A stretch of DNA of 64,000 nucleotides, from the NCBI GenBank assembly GCA_963751585.1, contig CAVVVB010000003.1, forward strand, positions 8,667 through 72,666, read 5' to 3'. The stretch's first letter is position 1. Every line of letters starts with the position of its first letter. The translations under genes and the position numbers were made by a program. This stretch comes from an uncultured Chloroflexia bacterium (GTDB lineage: Bacteria > Chloroflexota > Dehalococcoidia > GIF9 > UBA5629). Shown here one piece after another: positions 15,909-61,205 of this stretch. The notes under the pieces were generated by a model. That model worked only from the letters and a program-made list of their open reading frames with translations, did not search any database and had not been told where the DNA came from.

Positions 15909-16781
15909 TCATGTATATAACTTTACAAAACCCGCCTTAAAGTCGGTATGTTTCATGCCAAGCAAAACAAGAATAGAAGCACGTACAAGCGCTCTTCCGG
16001 CTGTGCGTGTCTCTTGGGCATTCGCCTCACTAAGTCGTGATAGTTGGCCGTCATGAAAGCCATCATTTCTTAACTTATAGAGATCATTAAGCCTAGGAAT
16101 CGCGGGAAACTGTTGATCCACGAGCAATGACTCCACTTTTTGAAACTTATTTCCGGGCTTGCCTAGAAAATTTGCCTGTGACTCAAGACATACCCAATTC
16201 AGAGCAGCTTCAACCAACGGTCTTCCGATCTCGAATTCTCGTAGGGCACTAAAAAACCACTGCATCGCCAAACGAAGTCGCGTTTCTTCAATTGTTGGAA
16301 TAATACTTAGTGCTTTCTCGAAGTTGTCTGTCGCTTTATCGGGCGGTGCAGCAAGTTCATGAAATCCCTCGCCACCTGTAACAAAGGCTAGAGATGAAGA
16401 CCAGTCTGCCACAGATTTTCTTGTTTCCCTCCACAAATATTGACAGCTCCCGCCAAAATAAATAGACGTGAATGCAAGTAAATCATCTATGATAGTCCTA
16501 TCGCTGGATGGTTCAAAAACGGAATCATTAGGAGGGATGCCGTAATATTCGATCACTATCGCTGCGTGTTTGAGACAATAGTCCACATCTGAAATTTGTG
16601 CTTTGGGAGTTAGAAGGGGATTAAATCCATAGGAAGATTCGTAAGAGAAATCACTTGGTTTTAGGATATACCAATTTCTCTTACTTAAAAATGGTGCAGC
16701 AAACTTTGTCCACCAGATTGTATGTGGCGCATTAACTATGTATCTAATGAATGGTTTGGGGGCCGTGACAATCTGTGTCAC
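15909..16781 (-). CDS. Hypothetical protein (island cargo)
   Basis: 290-aa ORF in the low-GC insert. No family recognised by eye. Confidence 0.5.
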   Translation of the reverse strand: MTQIVTAPKPFIRYIVNAPHTIWWTKFAAPFLSKRNWYILKPSDFSYESSYGFNPLLTPKAQISDVDYCLKHAAIVIEYYGIPPNDSVFEPSSDRTIIDDLLAFTSIYFGGSCQYLWRETRKSVADWSSSLAFVTGGEGFHELAAPPDKATDNFEKALSIIPTIEETRLRLAMQWFFSALREFEIGRPLVEAALNWVCLESQANFLGKPGNKFQKVESLLVDQQFPAIPRLNDLYKLRNDGFHDGQLSRLSEANAQETRTAGRALVRASILVLLGMKHTDFKAGFVKLYT

Positions 16782-16935
16782 AATGCACTCTCGTAATTAG
16801 GTCGGTCACTTATACAAGTTATACTGTTGGTCTTACACGTCAGTTTACCATGCTGTGATCGGCGCAACAACTGCTGCTGAGCAATAGAAGGCAACAAATA
16901 GCCAGAAGGTGACATTTGTAACCGTTGGAGAAAAC

Positions 16936-17832
16936 TTAATTATTTAATAGCATTCGCCTCATTTGTTTGACTTTTATGTTCCAGCCGTTCTTTTCAATTG
17001 CGCTGTGTAATTGCTCGATATTCTTCTTAGCTAATTGAGAATATCCTCCGGCAACAACAATGCCTTCTACACTACTTTCATCGCGGGCAATAAGAATGCT
17101 ATTAGGCATGGGGTCATCGGTATTATCAAATAATCCGAGTTGCTTTTTTTGCTCGTAATTTTTTTGGTAGCAGGTTGCGTAATCATTGATATGTTCTCTG
17201 ACGTGTTGAACGTAGTCGTTTACCTGTTTGCCTGCCTTCTCCCGAAGTTCTGGATTTCTTCCCAGCTTAATCTCAAGGACAACGAAATGATACTTTCCTG
17301 TCTCTCCACGTTTTAGTGCTAACAGGTCAACTCTAGCCCAATTGAGATGGTCCGCGACCTGGCGGTCAATGATAAAAAAATCAGGGTTAGGAGGGTTATC
17401 TGTAACGATGACTTGCTCCATCGTTATCTCTTCACCATTGTGCACCTTTCGTATCTGCCCACTGATGCGATCCAGATGATTCCTCTGAAAGAAGCGATGT
17501 AACTTGTCGCTTTGGATATTGAAACTAATGTATTCTCCACTAAATCGCCGGTTTAAAGAACAAGCTTCAAGCTTTTTATATATGTCATCAGAGATAAATT
17601 TCTTGTGTATCTTCGCTGTGTAGGTTCGACTCATCGTTTTTGGTGTTACCTGGGCAACTGAATTACCTTGGTAGTAAATATTGAAGCAATCCTGCCGGAT
17701 TTGAAGGTTGTATTCTTCATTCGAATTATTGATGAGTTTGACAACAGGTTTGAGGTCTTTCTTTATCATCTCCCAATCTTCATCCACGTGGCTAAAGAAA
17801 CGGTCAATAGTTCGTATGTAATTTGTGCTCAT
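16936..17832 (-). CDS. Hypothetical protein with a PD-(D/E)xK-nuclease-like motif (island cargo)
   Basis: 298 aa. The region FFIIDRQVADH...GKYHFVVLEIKLG fits a D...(E)xK restriction-endonuclease-fold active-site pattern. Confidence 0.45.
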   Translation of the reverse strand: MSTNYIRTIDRFFSHVDEDWEMIKKDLKPVVKLINNSNEEYNLQIRQDCFNIYYQGNSVAQVTPKTMSRTYTAKIHKKFISDDIYKKLEACSLNRRFSGEYISFNIQSDKLHRFFQRNHLDRISGQIRKVHNGEEITMEQVIVTDNPPNPDFFIIDRQVADHLNWARVDLLALKRGETGKYHFVVLEIKLGRNPELREKAGKQVNDYVQHVREHINDYATCYQKNYEQKKQLGLFDNTDDPMPNSILIARDESSVEGIVVAGGYSQLAKKNIEQLHSAIEKNGWNIKVKQMRRMLLNN

Positions 17833-17859
17833 TCTTTCCTCCTAAGAGTGGCGATAAGA

Positions 17860-19149
17860 TTACAGGATTAATTCCTGACCATCATCAACTAGGATAACAT
17901 TAGAGAACATCTCATTGAACCTTTCGGGATAGAAAGTGTGGATCGGGATAATGAATCTCGGTTTAAGAGCTTCACTGATATCTCTCAAATGCTGAAGAAC
18001 GGCATGACCACTTGTGTGTATCTCCGATAATTCAATACCACGTTCAGCTAAAAACTCAGGCAGATTATTTCTTTCAAGATACCCGTGCCACATCGAGTAG
18101 ACAGTTGTCGCTTCACCACACTTGGTTATCAAGCTACGGTAGAACCGATTATCCTTGGACAGGACGACTTTATTTTCAGGCTCGATGTAAATCTCCTTTG
18201 GTTTTATCCTATGCTTGGCATATTTATACAGGAGCTGTTCATCCAGTTTCGCCAGTTTTTGGGCATGGTGATGAAGAAAGAAGACCCGCACGTTGTCCCA
18301 ATTGAATTGGGGGATATTCGGTGACAAGTCACGGAGCTTTTCAAGAACGAATGCCGTATACAAGTCTATTATGAAAGTTCTATCGGACTTCTTTGCTGCT
18401 CGATATATAGATACGATGCGATCTAGGTTCTGCGACGATGTAAAGACAAAGCAGATTTTCTTATCGACTCGCATCTTGTGAACCAGTGCTTCTTCAACAG
18501 AGGTTTCGTCAGGATAAAGCCCCTCTTCTCTACCGATCATCGAGCCTTCCATGATCAGATAATCTATGTTCTCAGGAGGTTGCTTTATCAACCTTTCAAG
18601 TAAGATCTTTTTCCTTCCGTGACCGCGGAAATCACCCGTATAGAATATCCTCTTCTGGTCATGTTCTATGAGAAATGCAGCGGCGTCAGGAGCAGAGTGA
18701 TCCATGAGATATGGAGTGATGGTGAAACCGCTGATTTTAAAAGGTCTCCACATCATAAACGTTTTGATATTAACAACATTGATATTAGCTTCGATGAAGA
18801 GGTTTGACACTTCAGCTAATGACTTGGTTCCCCTGCTCATATATATGGGGATATCCGGTTGAACGAATTGCAGGAATCCATAGTGGTCTTGATGGGCATG
18901 AGATAATAGTACCGCTGAAACAGGTGATTGACTGGAATTATAAAGGCCTTCGATAGCAGGTAATATCTTAAGATCGATCAACTGTTGAGCACTTTTCCCT
19001 TTGTGTACGCTCCACTCGAACTGTGTCCTGTCCGATTTTACTAGGGGCATACCAAAGTCTAGAATCAGTCGCGCGCCAGTAGAGTCGGAAGATATTTGGA
19101 CACAGCTTCCCCCGATTTCATGGGTGCCACGATGAATCGTGAGTCTCAC
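17860..19149 (-). CDS. Metallo-beta-lactamase-fold hydrolase (island cargo), possibly a nuclease
   Basis: 429 aa. The HxHxDH motif (LLSHAHQDHYGFLQ) and a downstream FYTGDFRGHG (Asp motif) are typical of MBL/beta-CASP-type enzymes. Confidence 0.7.
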   Translation of the reverse strand: MRLTIHRGTHEIGGSCVQISSDSTGARLILDFGMPLVKSDRTQFEWSVHKGKSAQQLIDLKILPAIEGLYNSSQSPVSAVLLSHAHQDHYGFLQFVQPDIPIYMSRGTKSLAEVSNLFIEANINVVNIKTFMMWRPFKISGFTITPYLMDHSAPDAAAFLIEHDQKRIFYTGDFRGHGRKKILLERLIKQPPENIDYLIMEGSMIGREEGLYPDETSVEEALVHKMRVDKKICFVFTSSQNLDRIVSIYRAAKKSDRTFIIDLYTAFVLEKLRDLSPNIPQFNWDNVRVFFLHHHAQKLAKLDEQLLYKYAKHRIKPKEIYIEPENKVVLSKDNRFYRSLITKCGEATTVYSMWHGYLERNNLPEFLAERGIELSEIHTSGHAVLQHLRDISEALKPRFIIPIHTFYPERFNEMFSNVILVDDGQELIL

Positions 19150-35409: not shown

Positions 35410-36060
35410 TTACTCCAGCGGCATACGTAGTACCATCTTGGCCAGGTCCCAGCAGTGCTCGTACAGGTGAAGCCCCTTGCTGAAGGCTATAAGATTGCCG
35501 TCGTCCACCCCGATCTCTTTCGCCATATATTCTTTCAGCAGCTGCAGGCCGCCCAGGTTGGTGGGGAAACCGCCCCATAAGTCCCAGCTCCTGAAGTAGA
35601 GAATGAAGCTCAGTCGTCCGTCCTGCACCCTGGTATCCACTACCCTGAGACATGGCGGGTCTTTCAGGTAAATGCTGTTCCGGCTGCCGACGGTCATGCA
35701 CATCTGGTTGGTATCGAAGCCCAGCTTATAGCGCTTGATGACCTCGTCTATTTGCTCGGCCAGGTCTTCGCCGTAGGTGTACTCCTCGTTCTCCTGCTTG
35801 GCGGCCGTCATCAAATAAGACATATATTCCTCGATGACCTCATCCGTAGTCGGCGCCGGCACGCCGGAGGGCACGTCCGGCCGTAACGGTCTCACCCCGG
35901 GATTGCGGATGGTGATGGAAACAAGAGGTATCTCTTTGCGGTGCGTGCCCTCGAAACTCCCTTGCTGTATCAGATATGTCCTGCCCTCCAGCAAGGCCTT
36001 GTTGAGACATTGGAACCAGGCGTCTCCGATGGTGAGTGCCTGAATTGCTGTCAGCTCCAT
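35410..36060 (-). CDS. Thymidylate-synthase-family protein (short archaeal-type ThyA-like)
   Basis: Catalytic PPC motif and C-terminal half (PPCLRVVDTRVQDGRLSFILYFRSWDLWGGFPTNLGGL...GLHLYEHC). The ATG at 36060 (GGAGG RBS), internal to track ORF 35410..36192, gives about 216 aa. Confidence 0.7.
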   Translation of the reverse strand: MELTAIQALTIGDAWFQCLNKALLEGRTYLIQQGSFEGTHRKEIPLVSITIRNPGVRPLRPDVPSGVPAPTTDEVIEEYMSYLMTAAKQENEEYTYGEDLAEQIDEVIKRYKLGFDTNQMCMTVGSRNSIYLKDPPCLRVVDTRVQDGRLSFILYFRSWDLWGGFPTNLGGLQLLKEYMAKEIGVDDGNLIAFSKGLHLYEHCWDLAKMVLRMPLE

Positions 36061-36916
36061 GTGCAACCTCCGGTCGGGGGTTTTCTGGTAGCCATAAGTA
36101 TACCAAAAACCTTCTGCTGGCAGTACCCCGATGGCGGCACGCCAATCGGGGTCGGGGCCTACGGCCTTTCGCCCGGCATTTCGACAAGTCATAGATGCCT
36201 GGCAATAGCTATAGCTGGTTATCTGGTTTCTCGATTGTGCAATGAGTTGATTGCCGGTTGTAGATGGCGTTCAAAACTTCCAGTGTTTCACGGTTGGTAA
36301 TCTCTTTGGCAAGGTCCGGTGTTGATTGCACGGCATTGCCCCAAAGCCCTTTACAAATTTGACGGCAAATGCTATCGTTAATATAGAATCACGATGAGAG
36401 GCCAACCAAAGGGTTCCGTCCCGCGGTAATGCCTCTCTTTTTAGTTTAGCCTCTCTTATTGACTTCCCTACCATCGCTCACAATAATGAGCATGTACTCC
36501 ATGATTGGAGCATTAAGCAATAATTGCCTCTGCTGAGAGATTCATTGAGAAGTAGTGGTAATTCTGGGGATTAAGGAGAAATATCCTGAATATTGCAGTG
36601 TTATTTACTGCTTTCGCAGTATTTTGTACTGCATCACTTCCAGAAGTGAACAATGTCTTTGGGTACTCAACTGTGCTTGCGCCAGCCCGAAGCTCGTAAT
36701 ACCCTTTCAGAACCATCTTGTTATGGCTCACCTCCTGTGGCCCTAAAGTTTACTTAGAGAAATATCACATAAGCGGACCAATAGCCACGATTATCATGCA
36801 ATTTTCACCACCACGCCAATTGTCATACGTCTTGTCGGCGAGCTTTCGACGTTGTAGAATAGGGCAATCTGAAAAGAGTTGAAAACCGACACCGCAGCTT
36901 TGTCGAAGAGAGACAA

Positions 36917-38224
36917 TTGGCAGCTCTTGGGAGATTGATCTTGAGTCAAACAGTTTTAAGGAGAGAATTACCAGTATCAACTGACGAAAAGGCATTAATA
37001 CGAGGTTTTATCTTTGCCTGCACCCAAAACAGCGAGCGCGAATGCCTAAGTAGACTTCTCTTCGCGACGGAGAAATTGTATGGACCAGTGGTTATCAGAA
37101 TAAGGGAAGGCGATCTACTTTTTTTGCATAACCTAGATACAGGAATTTTGCATGGGGTATTCAAGGCAGTATCGAATGGCAGTTTCAACATCCAGGCTAA
37201 CGCATTCGGGGGAAGGTATCCTTACCAAGTTAGAGTTGAACCTATTGGAGAAACGATAAAGATTGCCGGCGCAGAAAAAATACTAAAATACTTTGGTGTG
37301 AATAGGAACAACCCTCTATTCAGAAAGAAACTGTCAGATTTGTTGGCTGCTTTTATTCAGCCTGGCCAACCCGCTCTTGAGACTATGTCAAATATGAATT
37401 CCACGAGGGATCTAATAGCACGTGAGATAGAGAATATACGCAGTAGCGGGGCCAAAATAGACATTGATGATGAAATATCCCTAATCGAGGCTACAACCTT
37501 TTGGGATTTTCCTAGACAAAGCTACGGCCTAACCTCAAAAGGTGATAATAGATATGCTGGTGTCACTCCTGCCTTAATAATATACAATCTCGTGTGGAGA
37601 TATACTGCGCCCGACGATCTCGTTGTTGATCCTATGTGTGGGAGCGGTACAACGATCGACGTTTGCAAAGAAGAAAAAAGAAGGGTAATCGGATATGACA
37701 TAAAGTCGACAAGGCCGGACATTATCAAGAATGACGCGAGGCATATACCTCTTGATGATAATTCCGTGGATATGGTTTTTATAGATAGCCCTTATGGCGA
37801 TAATATCAAATATAACGAGGAGTCAGCTAACATAGGTAATATTTCAAGCGAGTCAGATGAATTCTACGACGAGTTAGAACAGGTAATGAGGGAATCACGT
37901 AGAATTTTAAAGGAAGGCAAGGTATTGGGTTGGTTGATCGGCGACCAATGGGTTAAGAAAAAGTTCACCCCTGTTGGTTTTAAGATATACGAGAGGTTGT
38001 GCAAGCACTTTGAACCTGTTGACATGATTTGTGTTTCAAGAAGAGGCCAATCCTCCAATACAGGAGTGTGGCAGAACAGGGCAAGAAGGTTTAATTTCTA
38101 CCTGAGGGGATTCAAGTATTTGATCATAGTACGAAAGATAACCGCTACGAATATTTCAGAGAAGCCCCGAAAGATTACATGGGGGAGATATGCTAGAGGT
38201 GGGGAGACGAACAATGAATATTGA
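36917..38224 (+). CDS. DNA methyltransferase (N6-adenine/N4-cytosine class) with an N-terminal DCD/PUA-like domain. The start codon is uncertain.
   Basis: C-terminal MTase motif I (VVDPMCGSGTT) and motif IV (FIDSPYGD). The N-terminal 200 aa (GFIFACTQNSERECL...LFLHNLDTGILHGVFKAVSNG-FNIQANAFGGRYPYQVRV) match the DCD-domain consensus. Confidence 0.85.
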   Translation: MAALGRLILSQTVLRRELPVSTDEKALIRGFIFACTQNSERECLSRLLFATEKLYGPVVIRIREGDLLFLHNLDTGILHGVFKAVSNGSFNIQANAFGGRYPYQVRVEPIGETIKIAGAEKILKYFGVNRNNPLFRKKLSDLLAAFIQPGQPALETMSNMNSTRDLIAREIENIRSSGAKIDIDDEISLIEATTFWDFPRQSYGLTSKGDNRYAGVTPALIIYNLVWRYTAPDDLVVDPMCGSGTTIDVCKEEKRRVIGYDIKSTRPDIIKNDARHIPLDDNSVDMVFIDSPYGDNIKYNEESANIGNISSESDEFYDELEQVMRESRRILKEGKVLGWLIGDQWVKKKFTPVGFKIYERLCKHFEPVDMICVSRRGQSSNTGVWQNRARRFNFYLRGFKYLIIVRKITATNISEKPRKITWGRYARGGETNNEY

Positions 38225-38885
38225 AGATCTGTTTAAAATATATCAGACCAAGAAGGCCCAATATGGCGCTGAAGCGTACAGACACATATCAAGCGTTCTG
38301 AAGGAAGCCAAGAAGCAGCACGAAAAGGAGTTTACGGGTGTTGATCACGAGCAATCTTGGAAAGGGTTCAAAGGTAATGCATTAGAGGGTTTAATCTTAC
38401 ACATAATAAATGATGAAATAACGAGCTTGGGACTGAAAATAGTGAAGGGCAAGAAATTTGAAAGAACTAAGCCTGAAAACTTATCAACCGAACTTAAACA
38501 CGTTAAGAAGAACTTGTCGATAGATTTTGGCAAGTTCGGATTTCATACCCCCGATGTGGACTTAGTTATTTTTGATCCGAAGACATATAAAGTAATAGCC
38601 GTTCTCTCGAGCAAAGTGACCCTGCGCGAAAGAATCACGCAAACGGCTTACTGGAACTTGAAGATGAAGAATTACGAGTTAACGAATCACATAAAGGTTT
38701 ATTTCGTTACTCCTGACGAAGATGGGACGCTTACGATTGCGAATCCGGCTAAGAAGGGAAGAGTAATTGTTGAAGTCGACACCGACGGAAGCTATGTACT
38801 GAGTGAGAATGAGGTGGAAGAAAGCGACAAGGTGAAGATGTTTGATAGGTTTATTGATGATCTGAAACGTGTCTCAAGGAAGTAG
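38214..38885 (+). CDS. Putative restriction-endonuclease-like protein (PD-(D/E)xK candidate) partnered with the MTase
   Basis: About 224 aa. The ATG at 38214 overlaps the MTase stop. A candidate active-site region is HTPDVDLVIFD...VLSSKVTLRER. No recognisable family otherwise. Confidence 0.4.
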   Translation: MNIEDLFKIYQTKKAQYGAEAYRHISSVLKEAKKQHEKEFTGVDHEQSWKGFKGNALEGLILHIINDEITSLGLKIVKGKKFERTKPENLSTELKHVKKNLSIDFGKFGFHTPDVDLVIFDPKTYKVIAVLSSKVTLRERITQTAYWNLKMKNYELTNHIKVYFVTPDEDGTLTIANPAKKGRVIVEVDTDGSYVLSENEVEESDKVKMFDRFIDDLKRVSRK

Positions 38886-38907
38886 ATGACCCTGTAGGGC
38901 GGCGACT

Positions 38908-40758
38908 ATGTTTGATATAAACAAATTCAGGAATATCCAAACTGCAAATAATAGGTACGATAGGCGTATTAAGGCGCTTAAGTCCGAGGGCAAAGATGTG
39001 AAATGTATTGAGAAATCGGTTGCAGATGTGCTAAGTAATATAAGCGCCGGCATAACTTCATTTGTTATATACGGCGACCCCCAAAGTGGAAAAACAGAGA
39101 TGATGGTAGCCTTGACTGCAAAATTACTTGATTCAGGATACAAAATAGTTGTTATTCTGATAAAAGATGATGTCGAGCTGCTACAACAAAATCTTGGGCG
39201 CTTTGCTCGATCAGGTATTGATCCCACACCAAGAAGTTACGTTGAGATTATTGAACCTAGTGTGAACATTGAGAATAAGGAATGGATTATCTTCTGCAAA
39301 AAGAATCTCTACGATCTAGAGAAACTAGTATCTAAAATCGGCGGTGCGCCTGGTAAAGTTATTATTGATGACGAAGCGGATTATGCAACTCCAAACTCGA
39401 AAATAAATACGGATGAAAAGACGAAAATAAACGAACTTGTAGGGAAGTTGCTGGGCCAAAAATGGATTTATATAGGTGTCACTGCGACACCAGCAAGATT
39501 AGACCTAAACAATACATTTGAGAACGCTAACGACCATTGGGTCAATTTTCCAAACCATGAATTGTACACAGGACAGGAAGTTTTTTTCCCAATCAATCTC
39601 GGTTCCACCCTAAAATATATGCTTAATATATTACCCGACAAGTATGATGATCCTTCGTATCTAAGGCAGGCGCTATTCAGTTACCTAGTCAACGTAGCGT
39701 ACTTAAATGTGAAGGTTAATGATAAAGAGACGAACTATTGCATGTTAATCCACACTAGCGGCAAGAGGGTAGACCACACGGAAGATTACAAACAGGTTAT
39801 GAATGTGTTTAACGTTTTGGGTAATCCAGATAATGAGAAATATGGAAAATATATAAAAAAGATTTGGGAAATGGCAAAGAAACGTTACGGAACACAGGAT
39901 ATTGCGGATAGAATTACCCGTTATATAATCTCGAATATTTCGAGGAATAAGATCGTGGTGATGAACACCGATACAGACAGAAAAAATATCGATTTCTCCA
40001 CAGCTACCAGTCCAGTGAGCATTTTTACTATTGCAATTGGGGGGAACATAGTATCTAGGGGAGTAACCTTTAACAATTTATTAGCCATGTTTTTTACTAG
40101 AGATGTTAAGCACAAAATCCAGCAAGATACCTACATACAAAGAGCACGAATGTTTGGAGAGCGTGGAGCTTATCTGAAATATTTCGAGTTAACCATACCC
40201 CAAACATTGTATTTGGATTGGCAACGTTGCTTTGTGTTTCATAGACTGGCACTCGAGTCAATAAAAAGTGGAAATGTGCCGGTGTGGCTAGAAGATAAAC
40301 GGGTGAGCGCAGTTTCTGCATCGAGCATTGATAAAACAACGGTAGCTATGGATAGCGGCGAGATGAGCTTTGAGATTTTCAATTATGGAAATGACATTGA
40401 AAGAATTATCAAGGATCAGTCTAAGAAGTCCTTAGAGAAGCTAAAGATCCTTCAAGGAAGACTAACTAGCGCAAAGATTCCAACATACTTGGTTAGTTTT
40501 ATTGAGCGGTTTAGTCCGGATGGGAATAATTCTCTTGCCATTCATCCGTCTATAGATATATCAAATAGAGGCGCTGATGTGGATAAAAAGAACATTTCAA
40601 GGCCTAGAGGCCTCATAGGCAATAGCGAACTGGAAGAAGCAAAATATCCGCACGCGGTTCATCATATAAAGATATTTTACAACAACGAAAAGAAAGCCCG
40701 GATTTTTTATAGGTATGTCGGGAGCATTAGATTTCTAAAGAATCTAAAGGGATCGTGA
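38908..40758 (+). CDS. Z1-domain-like / SF2-related P-loop ATPase (restriction-system-associated)
   Basis: 616 aa. Walker A YGDPQSGKTE, Walker B/DEAD-like IIDDEADYA and a motif III-like VTATPARL. There is a long C-terminal region without obvious motifs. Confidence 0.55.
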   Translation: MFDINKFRNIQTANNRYDRRIKALKSEGKDVKCIEKSVADVLSNISAGITSFVIYGDPQSGKTEMMVALTAKLLDSGYKIVVILIKDDVELLQQNLGRFARSGIDPTPRSYVEIIEPSVNIENKEWIIFCKKNLYDLEKLVSKIGGAPGKVIIDDEADYATPNSKINTDEKTKINELVGKLLGQKWIYIGVTATPARLDLNNTFENANDHWVNFPNHELYTGQEVFFPINLGSTLKYMLNILPDKYDDPSYLRQALFSYLVNVAYLNVKVNDKETNYCMLIHTSGKRVDHTEDYKQVMNVFNVLGNPDNEKYGKYIKKIWEMAKKRYGTQDIADRITRYIISNISRNKIVVMNTDTDRKNIDFSTATSPVSIFTIAIGGNIVSRGVTFNNLLAMFFTRDVKHKIQQDTYIQRARMFGERGAYLKYFELTIPQTLYLDWQRCFVFHRLALESIKSGNVPVWLEDKRVSAVSASSIDKTTVAMDSGEMSFEIFNYGNDIERIIKDQSKKSLEKLKILQGRLTSAKIPTYLVSFIERFSPDGNNSLAIHPSIDISNRGADVDKKNISRPRGLIGNSELEEAKYPHAVHHIKIFYNNEKKARIFYRYVGSIRFLKNLKGS

Positions 40759-40761
40759 CCG

Positions 40762-41202
40762 ATGAGTACGGCGTCTTTCTTTCATGGTGCAGCGCTGATA
40801 AGAGTCATTCGCCACGAATTATTCAGTTCAATAAGAGTATATACAAATAATGATTGCTCCTATTTAGTAAATGATTCTTCAGGTATTTACATAAAGTATT
40901 CACAAAAAGCACTTACTCCATGGAGTTTTACCTTTTCTCAAGATCATGTTCATGAGATAGGCGAGATGAACCAGCGATTAGGACAAGTGTATGTCGTCTT
41001 AATATGCAACGAAGACGGTATTTGTTGTCTCAATTGGCAAGAATTTGCCACAGTGATTTCAACGGAAAGCAAGACGTATCCTAAATGGATTTCAGTCTCG
41101 AGAATGAAGGGCGAGAAATATTCTGTGTGGGGCAGAGACGGCGAGTTAAGGCATAAAGTAGGAAACATCGATTTCCCACGGAAAATATTTGAGACGGTGT
41201 AG
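40762..41202 (+). CDS. Hypothetical protein (island cargo)
   Basis: 146-aa ORF 3 bp after the ATPase gene, with the same low GC. No family recognised. Confidence 0.4.
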   Translation: MSTASFFHGAALIRVIRHELFSSIRVYTNNDCSYLVNDSSGIYIKYSQKALTPWSFTFSQDHVHEIGEMNQRLGQVYVVLICNEDGICCLNWQEFATVISTESKTYPKWISVSRMKGEKYSVWGRDGELRHKVGNIDFPRKIFETV

Positions 41203-41279
41203 AAGCCGTCACGACTTGCCGAAAATCGAGTAGTGCCTTTTGTTCTCCCCTAGTAACGGCACGTTGTTAGCAACAGCGG

Positions 41280-41308
41280 TTGACATCCCTAATTCGCGTA
41301 ACTACAAT
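41280..41308 (+). promoter_or_regulatory. Consensus promoter TTGACA-17-TACAAT at the right island boundary
   Basis: ttgacatccctaattcgcgtaactacaat reads as -35 and -10 with 17-nt spacing. Confidence 0.45.
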
Positions 41309-41753
41309 ATCCCTCATACGTAGGCTCAAGGAAAGGGGGAGATTCGTAGCTGTTTTCGGGTCCGATGATTGGTTACAAGCTTTTCACCAGGTCATAAATA
41401 ACAGTAAGGCCTATGAGGATGCGGCTAAGACGTGGGAGGGCGATTTCTATTTCATTAGCGAGCCTGAGGGTTCACAAACCAAGCCCATCTATATGTACGT
41501 AGACCTGTGGCACGGCAAGAGCCGGAAGGTGTTCATTGCCAAAGATGAATCCGAAATGAAACCCGAGTTCGTTATCTCGGCTACACCTACCGTCTGGAAA
41601 AAGGTCATCGAGAAGAAACTCGATCCTATACAGGGATTGATAACGCGGCAACTTAAGCTCAAGGGCAACCTGGCCAAGATCATGCGCGCGGTTAAGGCGG
41701 CTCAGGAGCTGGTGAACTGCACCACTATGGTGCAGACGGAGTTTCCCGCATAG
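41280..41753 (+). CDS. SCP2 (sterol-carrier-like) domain protein. The true start is uncertain and probably lies downstream of the track start.
   Basis: The C-terminal LKLKGNLAKIMRAVKAAQEL is a typical SCP2 signature. The track start (TTG 41280) coincides with the promoter -35 hexamer, so the real start is likely later. Confidence 0.55.
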   Translation: MTSLIRVTTISLIRRLKERGRFVAVFGSDDWLQAFHQVINNSKAYEDAAKTWEGDFYFISEPEGSQTKPIYMYVDLWHGKSRKVFIAKDESEMKPEFVISATPTVWKKVIEKKLDPIQGLITRQLKLKGNLAKIMRAVKAAQELVNCTTMVQTEFPA

Positions 41754-58943: not shown

Positions 58944-59534
58944 ATGGCACAGATTTTGCCGCGGACAGAGGTTAGAACGACAATCGCAGTAGACCTGGAT
59001 GGGGTTCTAGTAGAGCATATAGCACCTGTGCTTGATAAACTTAAGCGGGAATTGAATGTTAATCTCTGCAAATACGACATAAGTGATTCACAATTTCCCA
59101 TTGGAGGCACTTACATAAAAATCGAAATAGCAAAAGCCGAAAGAGATGAACAATTTGCTAAGACAATGCCATCAATAAGAGGCGCTGTCGAAGGGGTTCA
59201 AAAATTATACGCTAAGTTTAATATAGTTATCGCTACCAGCCGCGAGTCTTGTACAGACTCTTGGAGTCGTGGATGGTTAGATGATCATAGTGTTCCCTAT
59301 GGGAGGTTCATCAACACGAGCTCTAAAGGGAAGACGCTTAGCGGAGCGGATATCTTAATTGACGATCACATTGAGAACATACGAAGTTTCATGAGTAATG
59401 GACACAGGATCAGACAAGCAATTCTGTTCTCGCAGCCTTGGAACTCGGATGTTAACCCAATTCGCGACCTCATAAGATCAGGCGGGGTTAAAATTGCCCA
59501 TAACTGGGAAGCCGTGCTAGCTATCTTAGGTTGA
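58944..59534 (+). CDS. HAD-superfamily 5'(3')-deoxyribonucleotidase-like protein (NT5C family)
   Basis: HAD motif I IAVDLDGVL and a C-terminal Asp motif ILIDDHIEN. Length and layout fit the NT5C-type. The local GC is lower than in flanking core genes. Confidence 0.6.
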   Translation: MAQILPRTEVRTTIAVDLDGVLVEHIAPVLDKLKRELNVNLCKYDISDSQFPIGGTYIKIEIAKAERDEQFAKTMPSIRGAVEGVQKLYAKFNIVIATSRESCTDSWSRGWLDDHSVPYGRFINTSSKGKTLSGADILIDDHIENIRSFMSNGHRIRQAILFSQPWNSDVNPIRDLIRSGGVKIAHNWEAVLAILG

Positions 59535-59577
59535 GGTTCACTTGCCTGAGCTCTTGCCAGCTTCGGTACAGAACCAC

Positions 59578-60051
59578 TCATTCTTTAACCGGATATTTTG
59601 ACCTCTCACTGGCATTTGGATACCAGCCATCTTTAACATGCTCTTTAATATCAAATTGAGGTACATAGGGTTTAATATCCAATAACGGAGTCTCATCCAG
59701 CATATCCACTTCACCAATCTCCAGAATATTGTCCTTGACTTTCAAGAGTTTTACCATTGAGAGTCCGATCGGATTCGGCCGGGCAAAATAACGGATAGCG
59801 AAGATACCTTTCTTTTCCTTATCCAGAAAAGGTTTAGTCAGCAGTTGAAAACCTTCCGCCTTATGGAAGTGGTAAAGCAAGATCAAGTGAGAAAAGCCTT
59901 CGATATCTTTAAGCCCTGCCGCATATTCCGGAAATAATTCAATATAGCCCTGATTGTCAGGGGAGAAACAACCCTGAATAGGAGTATCTTCTTTCCTGGT
60001 GTAAGGGGTGTGAATAACTCCGATGGGTTTATAGATAATTGCGTCCGGCAT
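59578..60051 (-). CDS. TsaA/YaeB (TrmO) family tRNA-methyltransferase-like protein
   Basis: The C-terminal 153 aa of track ORF 59578..60453 (IIYKPIGVIHTPY...GIFAIRYFARPNPIGLSMVKLL). An internal ATG at 60051 with a GGAGGG RBS marks the start. Upstream, the same ORF encodes the ModC TOBE domain. Confidence 0.75.
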   Translation of the reverse strand: MPDAIIYKPIGVIHTPYTRKEDTPIQGCFSPDNQGYIELFPEYAAGLKDIEGFSHLILLYHFHKAEGFQLLTKPFLDKEKKGIFAIRYFARPNPIGLSMVKLLKVKDNILEIGEVDMLDETPLLDIKPYVPQFDIKEHVKDGWYPNASERSKYPVKE

Positions 60052-60054
60052 AAT

Positions 60055-61205
60055 TCCCTCCACAAGTTCTAAAAGACTGTTGTAACAAAAAGAGAAATTA
60101 CAGATAGTCTCTATGAAAAAATCTAATTCTGTAATAACTACCACATGTTCCGCCGGCAGATATAAGTAGCTTGATTGGCCTTCACGGATTACATCTGAAT
60201 CCGGCCTGGATAATATCACCATGATATAATGCCGGGTCGTCCCGACGGTATTCACATGGAAATAGTAATTAGTGGCAGTAACCCCTTCGACTACCCGGTC
60301 TACCGTACTTAAAAATGTATTTTCACCCGGTTGATCCCTCAATTGAATATATTCCGGCCGGATACCACAGTGACATGCTGATTGGTCGCCAGATTCATGG
60401 TTTTTTGGAATAATGGCTCTGACGGAACCACCTAATTCAGGGACTTTTATCAAGGCGCTCGATTCCTTCGATTTCGGTGACAGAGCCTTCCATCAAATTC
60501 TTAAATCCTACCAGCCTGGCGACGGTATGATTCGAGGGGCAGGTAATTACTTTCTCCTTGTGATCATGCTGGACGATACGTCCCGACTCAAATACGGCGA
60601 TTCTTGAACTGAGCTTATAACCCTCGGTTAAATCATGAGTGACAAACAGCATATTGCCTTTGTAAAAGCGCTGCAAAGCCTGAAGCTCAAGCTGCAAGCG
60701 TTCTTTCACCAGGGAATCCAGGGCAGAAAAGGGTTCATCCAGCAATAAGACTTCAGGTTCGGGCGCCAGAGCCCGGGCCACAGCCACCCGCTGCTGCTGC
60801 CCCGCCGATAGCTGTCTGGGATATCTGTCTCCCAGCCTCTGGATATTCATTTTCTCCAGCAACTCGGAGACTCTGTCTTTTATCTCCTTCGCAGTGAGAT
60901 GGCGGATACCATAGCCGATATTCTGATTTACGGTAAGATGGGGGAAAAGAGCATAGTTCTGGAAGACGAATCCTACCTTGCGCATCTGGGCCGGCAGGCT
61001 GAATTCCGCTGGCTGAATCCAACAGCACTTTATCATTAAGCTTGATGTAGCCTTCATCCGGCCGGATCAGCCCGGCAATACATTGCAGGGTCATCGTTTT
61101 TCCGGAGCCGGAGGGCCCCAGGATCGCCAGGATTTCCTGGTTTACCGAGAAAGCCACATCCAGGGTAAATCCCGGCAGTTTCCTTTTTACCCGGACTTCC
61201 AGCAT
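60055..61205 (-). pseudogene. modC: Molybdate/tungstate ABC transporter ATP-binding protein ModC-like (ATPase plus TOBE domain) with at least 2 frameshifts
   Basis: Walker A (GPSGSGKT) in ORF 60753..61205, and signature/Walker B (LSAGQQQRVAVARAL, LLLDEPFSALD) in ORF 60437..61057, in a different frame. The TOBE-like region continues into ORF 59578..60453. Confidence 0.7.

Follow-up and report, generated by a model that had tools for sequence, protein, structure and literature searches.

A horizontally acquired, restriction-modification-like island joining a DCD-fused methyltransferase, a BsaWI-family endonuclease and a helicase-like motor with a small nuclease-fold partner

CglI, NgoAVII and BceSIV are ATP-dependent restriction-modification systems (Zaremba 2014, PMC4267653; Toliusis 2017, 2018, PMC5737866, PMC5861437), and in CglI the R.CglI protein recruits H.CglI into an R2H2 complex (PMC4267653). 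For systems of this class to cleave, ATP must be hydrolysed and translocation must take place. A separate, purely computational study found that methylases with a fused DCD domain usually have a gene for a PD(D/E)XK nuclease after them (Bell, Wolf and Koonin 2020, PMC7641849). Here we describe a four-gene island (g1 to g4, 36917-41202, + strand) from an uncultured Chloroflexia bacterium, in a stretch of 64,000 nucleotides of contig CAVVVB010000003.1 (hereafter the window), that carries elements reminiscent of both. The island is very probably a restriction-modification island, and we propose, with a probability of about 0.55, that it acts as one methylation-based defence unit in which g1 and g2 work together with g3 and g4.

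The four co-directional genes are tightly spaced and differ sharply in composition from their surroundings, with a GC content of 0.403 against 0.512 in the remainder of the window and 0.53-0.60 in the immediately adjacent kilobases. The low-GC, four-gene island proposed by the first-pass annotation is thereby borne out, as is its description of a layout other than canonical Type I, II or III. Its spacing claim, of gaps or overlaps of 3 bp or less across genes 2 to 4, holds for the 3-bp gap between g3 and g4 but not for g2 and g3, which are 22 bp apart. To place the island in context we compared 101 loci, comprising L001 (a short public contig with the sequence of the window itself) and 100 loci from other sources, and scored gene architectures in the 36 that had enough flank.

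The methyltransferase and the endonuclease

The first gene, g1 (36917-38224, + strand), encodes 435 amino acids from a TTG start at 36917 or, equally plausibly, begins at the TTG at 36941, which is preceded by GGGAGA. It combines an N-terminal, PUA-like DCD domain (PF10539, residues 30-109, approximately 37004-37243; 67.5 bits, E 1.3e-18) with an N6/N4 amino-methyltransferase (N6_N4_Mtase, PF01555, residues 189-407; 83 bits, E 3.9e-23) that extends over residues 189-420 or so, with DPMCGSGTT as motif I and DSPYG as motif IV. These matches, like that of g2 to RE_BsaWI, exceed the Pfam gathering scores, and the domain calls of the first-pass annotation are all confirmed by them. PADLOC likewise recognises g1 as a Type II methyltransferase (MTase_II, E 1e-22), and its solved relatives in the Protein Data Bank (PDB) are m6A/m4C DNA amino-methyltransferases, namely TTHA0409, CcrM and N4-cytosine methyltransferases.

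The methylase portion of g1 is small, at about 230 amino acids, and has no obvious target-recognition insert, making it a TRD-less (target-recognition-domain-less) enzyme of the type that we call M2, as distinct from the large methylase M1 found at other loci. DCD fusions orthologous to g1 occur at L009, L010, L015 and L091, and in such DCD::M2 fusions the DCD domain is present exactly where M1 is missing, which speculatively suggests it as the supplier of DNA binding or hemimethylated-site recognition for a methylase that has no TRD. The fusion had been presented as a new twist; its pairing with a PD-(D/E)xK nuclease gene is in fact already described (Bell, Wolf and Koonin 2020, PMC7641849), and the components of the island are of known kinds, the DCD::methylase and nuclease pair among them, this pair being known computationally. 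The fusion offers a tractable bacterial handle on the ligands of DCD domains, a question that work on the plant cell-death proteins, from which the domain takes its name, has yet to settle.

The second gene, g2, lies in an open reading frame that opens at 38190 (231 amino acids) and has its most probable start codon in the ATG at 38214 (38214-38885, + strand; 223 amino acids, overlapping g1 by 11 bp), because its homologues are 222 amino acids long and begin with MNIEDL or MTIKDL at the equivalent methionine. The protein covers the whole of the RE_BsaWI profile (PF18643) with 111.6 bits, where the cut-off is 26.2 (E 2.3e-32), which turns the "nuclease-like protein" of the first-pass annotation into a BsaWI-family (CCGG-family) Type II PD-(D/E)xK restriction endonuclease, as judged from its sequence. 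Across 22 aligned homologues P113-D114, S133-K134 and R138-E139-R140 are invariant (223-residue numbering), and in a pairwise alignment D114, K134 and R138-E139-R140 fall opposite D145, K165 and R169-D170-R171 of BsaWI, where D145 and K165 are catalytic and R169-D170-R171 serves to recognise the CCGG core (PMC4652773). The predicted target of g2 therefore contains CCGG. The host window shows no shortage of this tetranucleotide (6.6 sites per kb), which fits protection by methylation.

Part of the active site speaks against this assignment. The fourth active-site residue of BsaWI, D175, aligns with an invariant threonine in g2, and the position equivalent to E201, the corresponding second acidic catalytic residue of NgoMIV, is occupied by a tryptophan; a different conserved acid, for example D116 or one of E187, D189 and D191, may act as a substitute. 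The g2 family is a large one: at about 70% identity it comprises more than 3100 members, some annotated as "BsaWI family type II restriction enzyme", and those with a named source carry the labels Patescibacteria, Elusimicrobia and Anaerolineae.

The motor and its small nuclease-fold partner

The third gene, g3 (38908-40758, + strand), encodes a helicase-like motor of 616 amino acids with Walker A, DEAD and TAT motifs, of which GDPQSGKTE (residues 56-64) and DEAD (155-158) are invariant across 40 homologues. It matches Pfam ResIII (E 6.5e-7), and its AlphaFold2 (AF2) model, with a predicted local distance difference test (pLDDT) score of 78, resembles the HsdR motor of Type I systems as well as superfamily 2 (SF2) helicases. 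By analogy with CglI, g3 would be an ATP-driven translocase on double-stranded DNA. The model also contains a C-terminal domain of about 160 amino acids, for which profile searches of the PDB gave no match at E<=10; a Foldseek search with the full-length model returned helicases only, and 6F1S was not within the top 50 matches.

The fourth gene, g4 (40762-41202, + strand; 146 amino acids), had been listed as a DUF; it is not an appendage but an invariant partner of the motor. Searches of Pfam, NCBIfam and PADLOC with g4 gave no match, its sole PHROG match is to a family of unknown function (PHROG 28860), and phmmer and profile searches of the PDB returned only a non-significant match to ZIP2. 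Its AF2 model is nonetheless confident (pLDDT 93 with 44 homologues) and has the alpha-beta-beta-beta-alpha-beta restriction-endonuclease-like fold of the PD-(D/E)xK superfamily, the fold search being the one search that was informative for g4. The closest fold matches of g4 are junction-resolving enzymes and non-catalytic subunits of tRNA endonucleases. A viral structure library yielded weak RecU- and resolvase-like matches only, and an hhalign comparison with an approximate Pyrococcus Hjc sequence was uninformative, at a probability of 0.8%.

The putative active site of g4 is unusual. H8, G9, Y34, K45, W54, C82 and G86 do not vary in an alignment of 75 homologues, and the conserved acids E65, D85 and E94 are located elsewhere than the canonical PD-(D/E)xK acid positions. 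Judging from the topology of the model, Y43-I44-K45 would occupy the expected (D/E)xK place, with H8 and Y34 at the places of the other two acids. With H8, Y34 and Y43 in these positions and K45 invariant, the modelled g4 keeps the fold and the lysine and would dispense with the usual metal-binding acids.

This uncharacterised family, with its odd active site, is the most interesting part of the island and the main reason for follow-up. The function of g4 would tell us whether it cuts DNA by a non-canonical active site, and would reveal how, in a large group of restriction systems not yet explored, a translocase is linked to the cutting of DNA. Its characterisation would also better the annotation of defence systems, since Pfam, NCBIfam and PADLOC all lack a model for it at present.

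Module recurrence, proposed mechanism and alternatives

Comparison of some 100 related loci shows that the island is a composite of two modules, g1+g2 and g3+g4. Around the g3-g4 pair the conserved genes are methyltransferases and, in a minority of loci, a BsaWI-like gene (R), with none else; the methyltransferase is near-constantly present, and in most relatives it is all that the pair adjoins. The pairing holds even in three viral contigs, where identity is only 41-46%. Genes of the g2 family in turn are often found away from any motor, in an M1-R-M2 arrangement at L089, L090 and L093-L096 and as a self-contained DCD::M2-R pair at L091 and L092. The full set of four genes recurs at L009 and L010 and, with its order permuted, at L015. 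A scan of genome contigs, made with a single-protein query, returned three loci.

The GC content of the module lies below that of the flanks in most hosts, with a median difference of 6.6 points, and because low GC recurs in so many hosts we conclude that the island was horizontally acquired, as the first-pass annotation had supposed, and that the module has been transferred repeatedly. In one relative, L047, each of the three genes has TGA codons in frame where its counterparts have an invariant tryptophan, from which it follows that this copy resides in an organism using genetic code 4; under that code the genes are intact, and we rejected the idea of a pseudogenised copy.

These observations enabled us to propose a model for how the island may work. 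As its only methylase, g1 would mark the host DNA, probably with N4-methylcytosine or N6-methyladenine within a site that contains CCGG, and it is tempting to speculate that the DCD domain gives this recognition-domain-free enzyme its contact with DNA, possibly by reading hemimethylated sites. g2, whose family and recognition motif are evident from the alignments, would cut unmethylated sites of the predicted CCGG type. g3 and g4 would probably constitute a self-sufficient ATP-dependent restriction effector restrained by the neighbouring methylase, because most relatives have the pair beside a methyltransferase only, and in this island the pair would target the same unmethylated DNA as g2. We consider it probable that g3 and g4 depend on the very methyl mark that g1 makes. 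The motor could either be recruited by g2, as H.CglI is by R.CglI, or work in parallel with it, and either route would turn a simple Type II system into an ATP-dependent one; a physical complex of g2 and g3, resembling R2H2, is a tentative suggestion that we would not expect to hold.

The reading of the island as one unit draws on family matches above curated cut-offs, the recurrence of the four-gene set, the tight operon spacing and the retention in g2 of the PD...K residues together with R-(D/E)-R. It competes chiefly with the view that g1+g2 and g3+g4 are two independent systems that happen to be neighbours, a view that stays plausible because each module also exists alone, although we judge it to be on the unlikely side. 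We think it improbable that the island is instead a modification-dependent, Type IV-like system, in which the DCD domain would recognise a modified base of foreign origin and modified invader DNA would come under attack by the nucleases and motor or, in a variant that follows the proposal of Bell et al., g1 would add a supplementary methyl group to DNA that is already modified. The DCD domain could act as a reader of this kind, but it is fused to a methylase, and g2 comes from a classical family that cuts unmethylated sites; nothing points to the modification-dependent cutting considered in the first-pass annotation. Epigenetic switching, which it had also raised, fares no better, as we found no phase-variable, simple-sequence or tandem repeats able to switch the island genes.

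A further alternative concerns g4 alone, which might be non-catalytic. The want of conserved acids at canonical PD-(D/E)xK positions, with histidine, tyrosine, lysine and tryptophan as the invariant residues, argues for this, as do fold matches that include both junction-resolving enzymes and non-catalytic tRNA-endonuclease subunits. However, if g4 were non-catalytic, the three-gene relatives, which are the commonest, would have no nuclease at all, and we regard this as a serious possibility but an unlikely one.

Genomic setting and comparison with described systems

The island sits between a thymidylate-synthase-like gene on its left (35410-36192, - strand; Pfam E 1e-11) and an SCP2 gene on its right (41280-41753, + strand; Pfam E 2e-10). 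Upstream of g1 is an AT-richer spacer of 725 bp (36193-36916, 44% GC) with no recognisable gene, presumably the site of the promoter region of the operon. Promoter-like sites occur within it at 36459-36487 and 36832-36860 (+ strand), but the 12 such sites found in the region are no excess over the 13.7 expected in shuffled sequence. The same caution applies to the consensus promoter placed at the right edge of the island by the first-pass annotation: the site exists (41280-41308, TTGACA-17-TACAAT, 11/12), but it lies at the start of the SCP2 open reading frame and belongs to a class no commoner than in shuffled sequence.

Small open reading frames on both strands of the spacer match no Pfam family. 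Two of them, of 72 and 67 amino acids, lie in tandem on the - strand at 36271-36731 in a layout like that of a toxin-antitoxin pair, a likeness that has no other support. A degraded M1 methylase hidden in the spacer was considered and rejected, as blastx searches for remnants of related-locus genes found no trace. As for signs of a mobile element, there is no tRNA anywhere in the window, there are no meaningful direct or inverted repeats at the island flanks and there is no integrase in the upstream spacer.

Two further segments of the window dip in GC. At 15909-19149 (- strand; 0.41-0.43 against approximately 0.51) three co-directional genes encode proteins of 290 and 298 amino acids with no Pfam match and a metallo-beta-lactamase-fold protein of 429 amino acids (Lactamase_B_2, E 2e-14); none of the three matches PADLOC, and the segment may be another horizontally acquired island, with no function assigned. 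The other dip, at 58944-60453 (0.43 at 59-60 kb), covers genes for an NT5C-type 5'-nucleotidase and a TrmO-domain tRNA methyltransferase, which look like ordinary housekeeping genes.

Like the pairs of Bell et al. 2020, the island places a PD-(D/E)xK gene directly after the gene for a Rossmann-fold methylase that bears an N-terminal DCD. With its PD, catalytic lysine and R-(D/E)-R, g2 resembles the Type IIP/IIF enzymes of the BsaWI/CCGG family (Tamulaitis 2015, PMC4652773), although a direct comparison with BsaWI itself gives a very weak match (phmmer E 0.45), it is shorter (223 against 272 amino acids) and it has the threonine noted above in place of D175. Moreover, the classical members of this family operate without any ATPase, whereas g2 is found beside a motor. 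Type III restriction-modification systems unite helicase and PD-(D/E)xK nuclease in a single Res polypeptide that is accompanied by Mod, an arrangement that the island does not share.

The comparison with CglI is closer in proposed mechanism than in composition. The nuclease of CglI and NgoAVII belongs to the PLD family and carries a B3-like DNA-binding domain, where g2 is a CCGG-family PD-(D/E)xK enzyme, and none of the four island proteins gave a PLD or B3 match. Their methylase is a C5-cytosine enzyme that modifies GCSGC, in contrast to the DCD-fused N6/N4 amino-methyltransferase g1. For the C-terminal domain of g3, no PDB chain shows detectable similarity in sequence, and the invariant small nuclease-fold protein g4 is without a counterpart in CglI. 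The island would therefore resemble the CglI class in its working but is not a member of it, as the PLD-B3 nuclease and m5C methylase that define the class are replaced here by components of other families.

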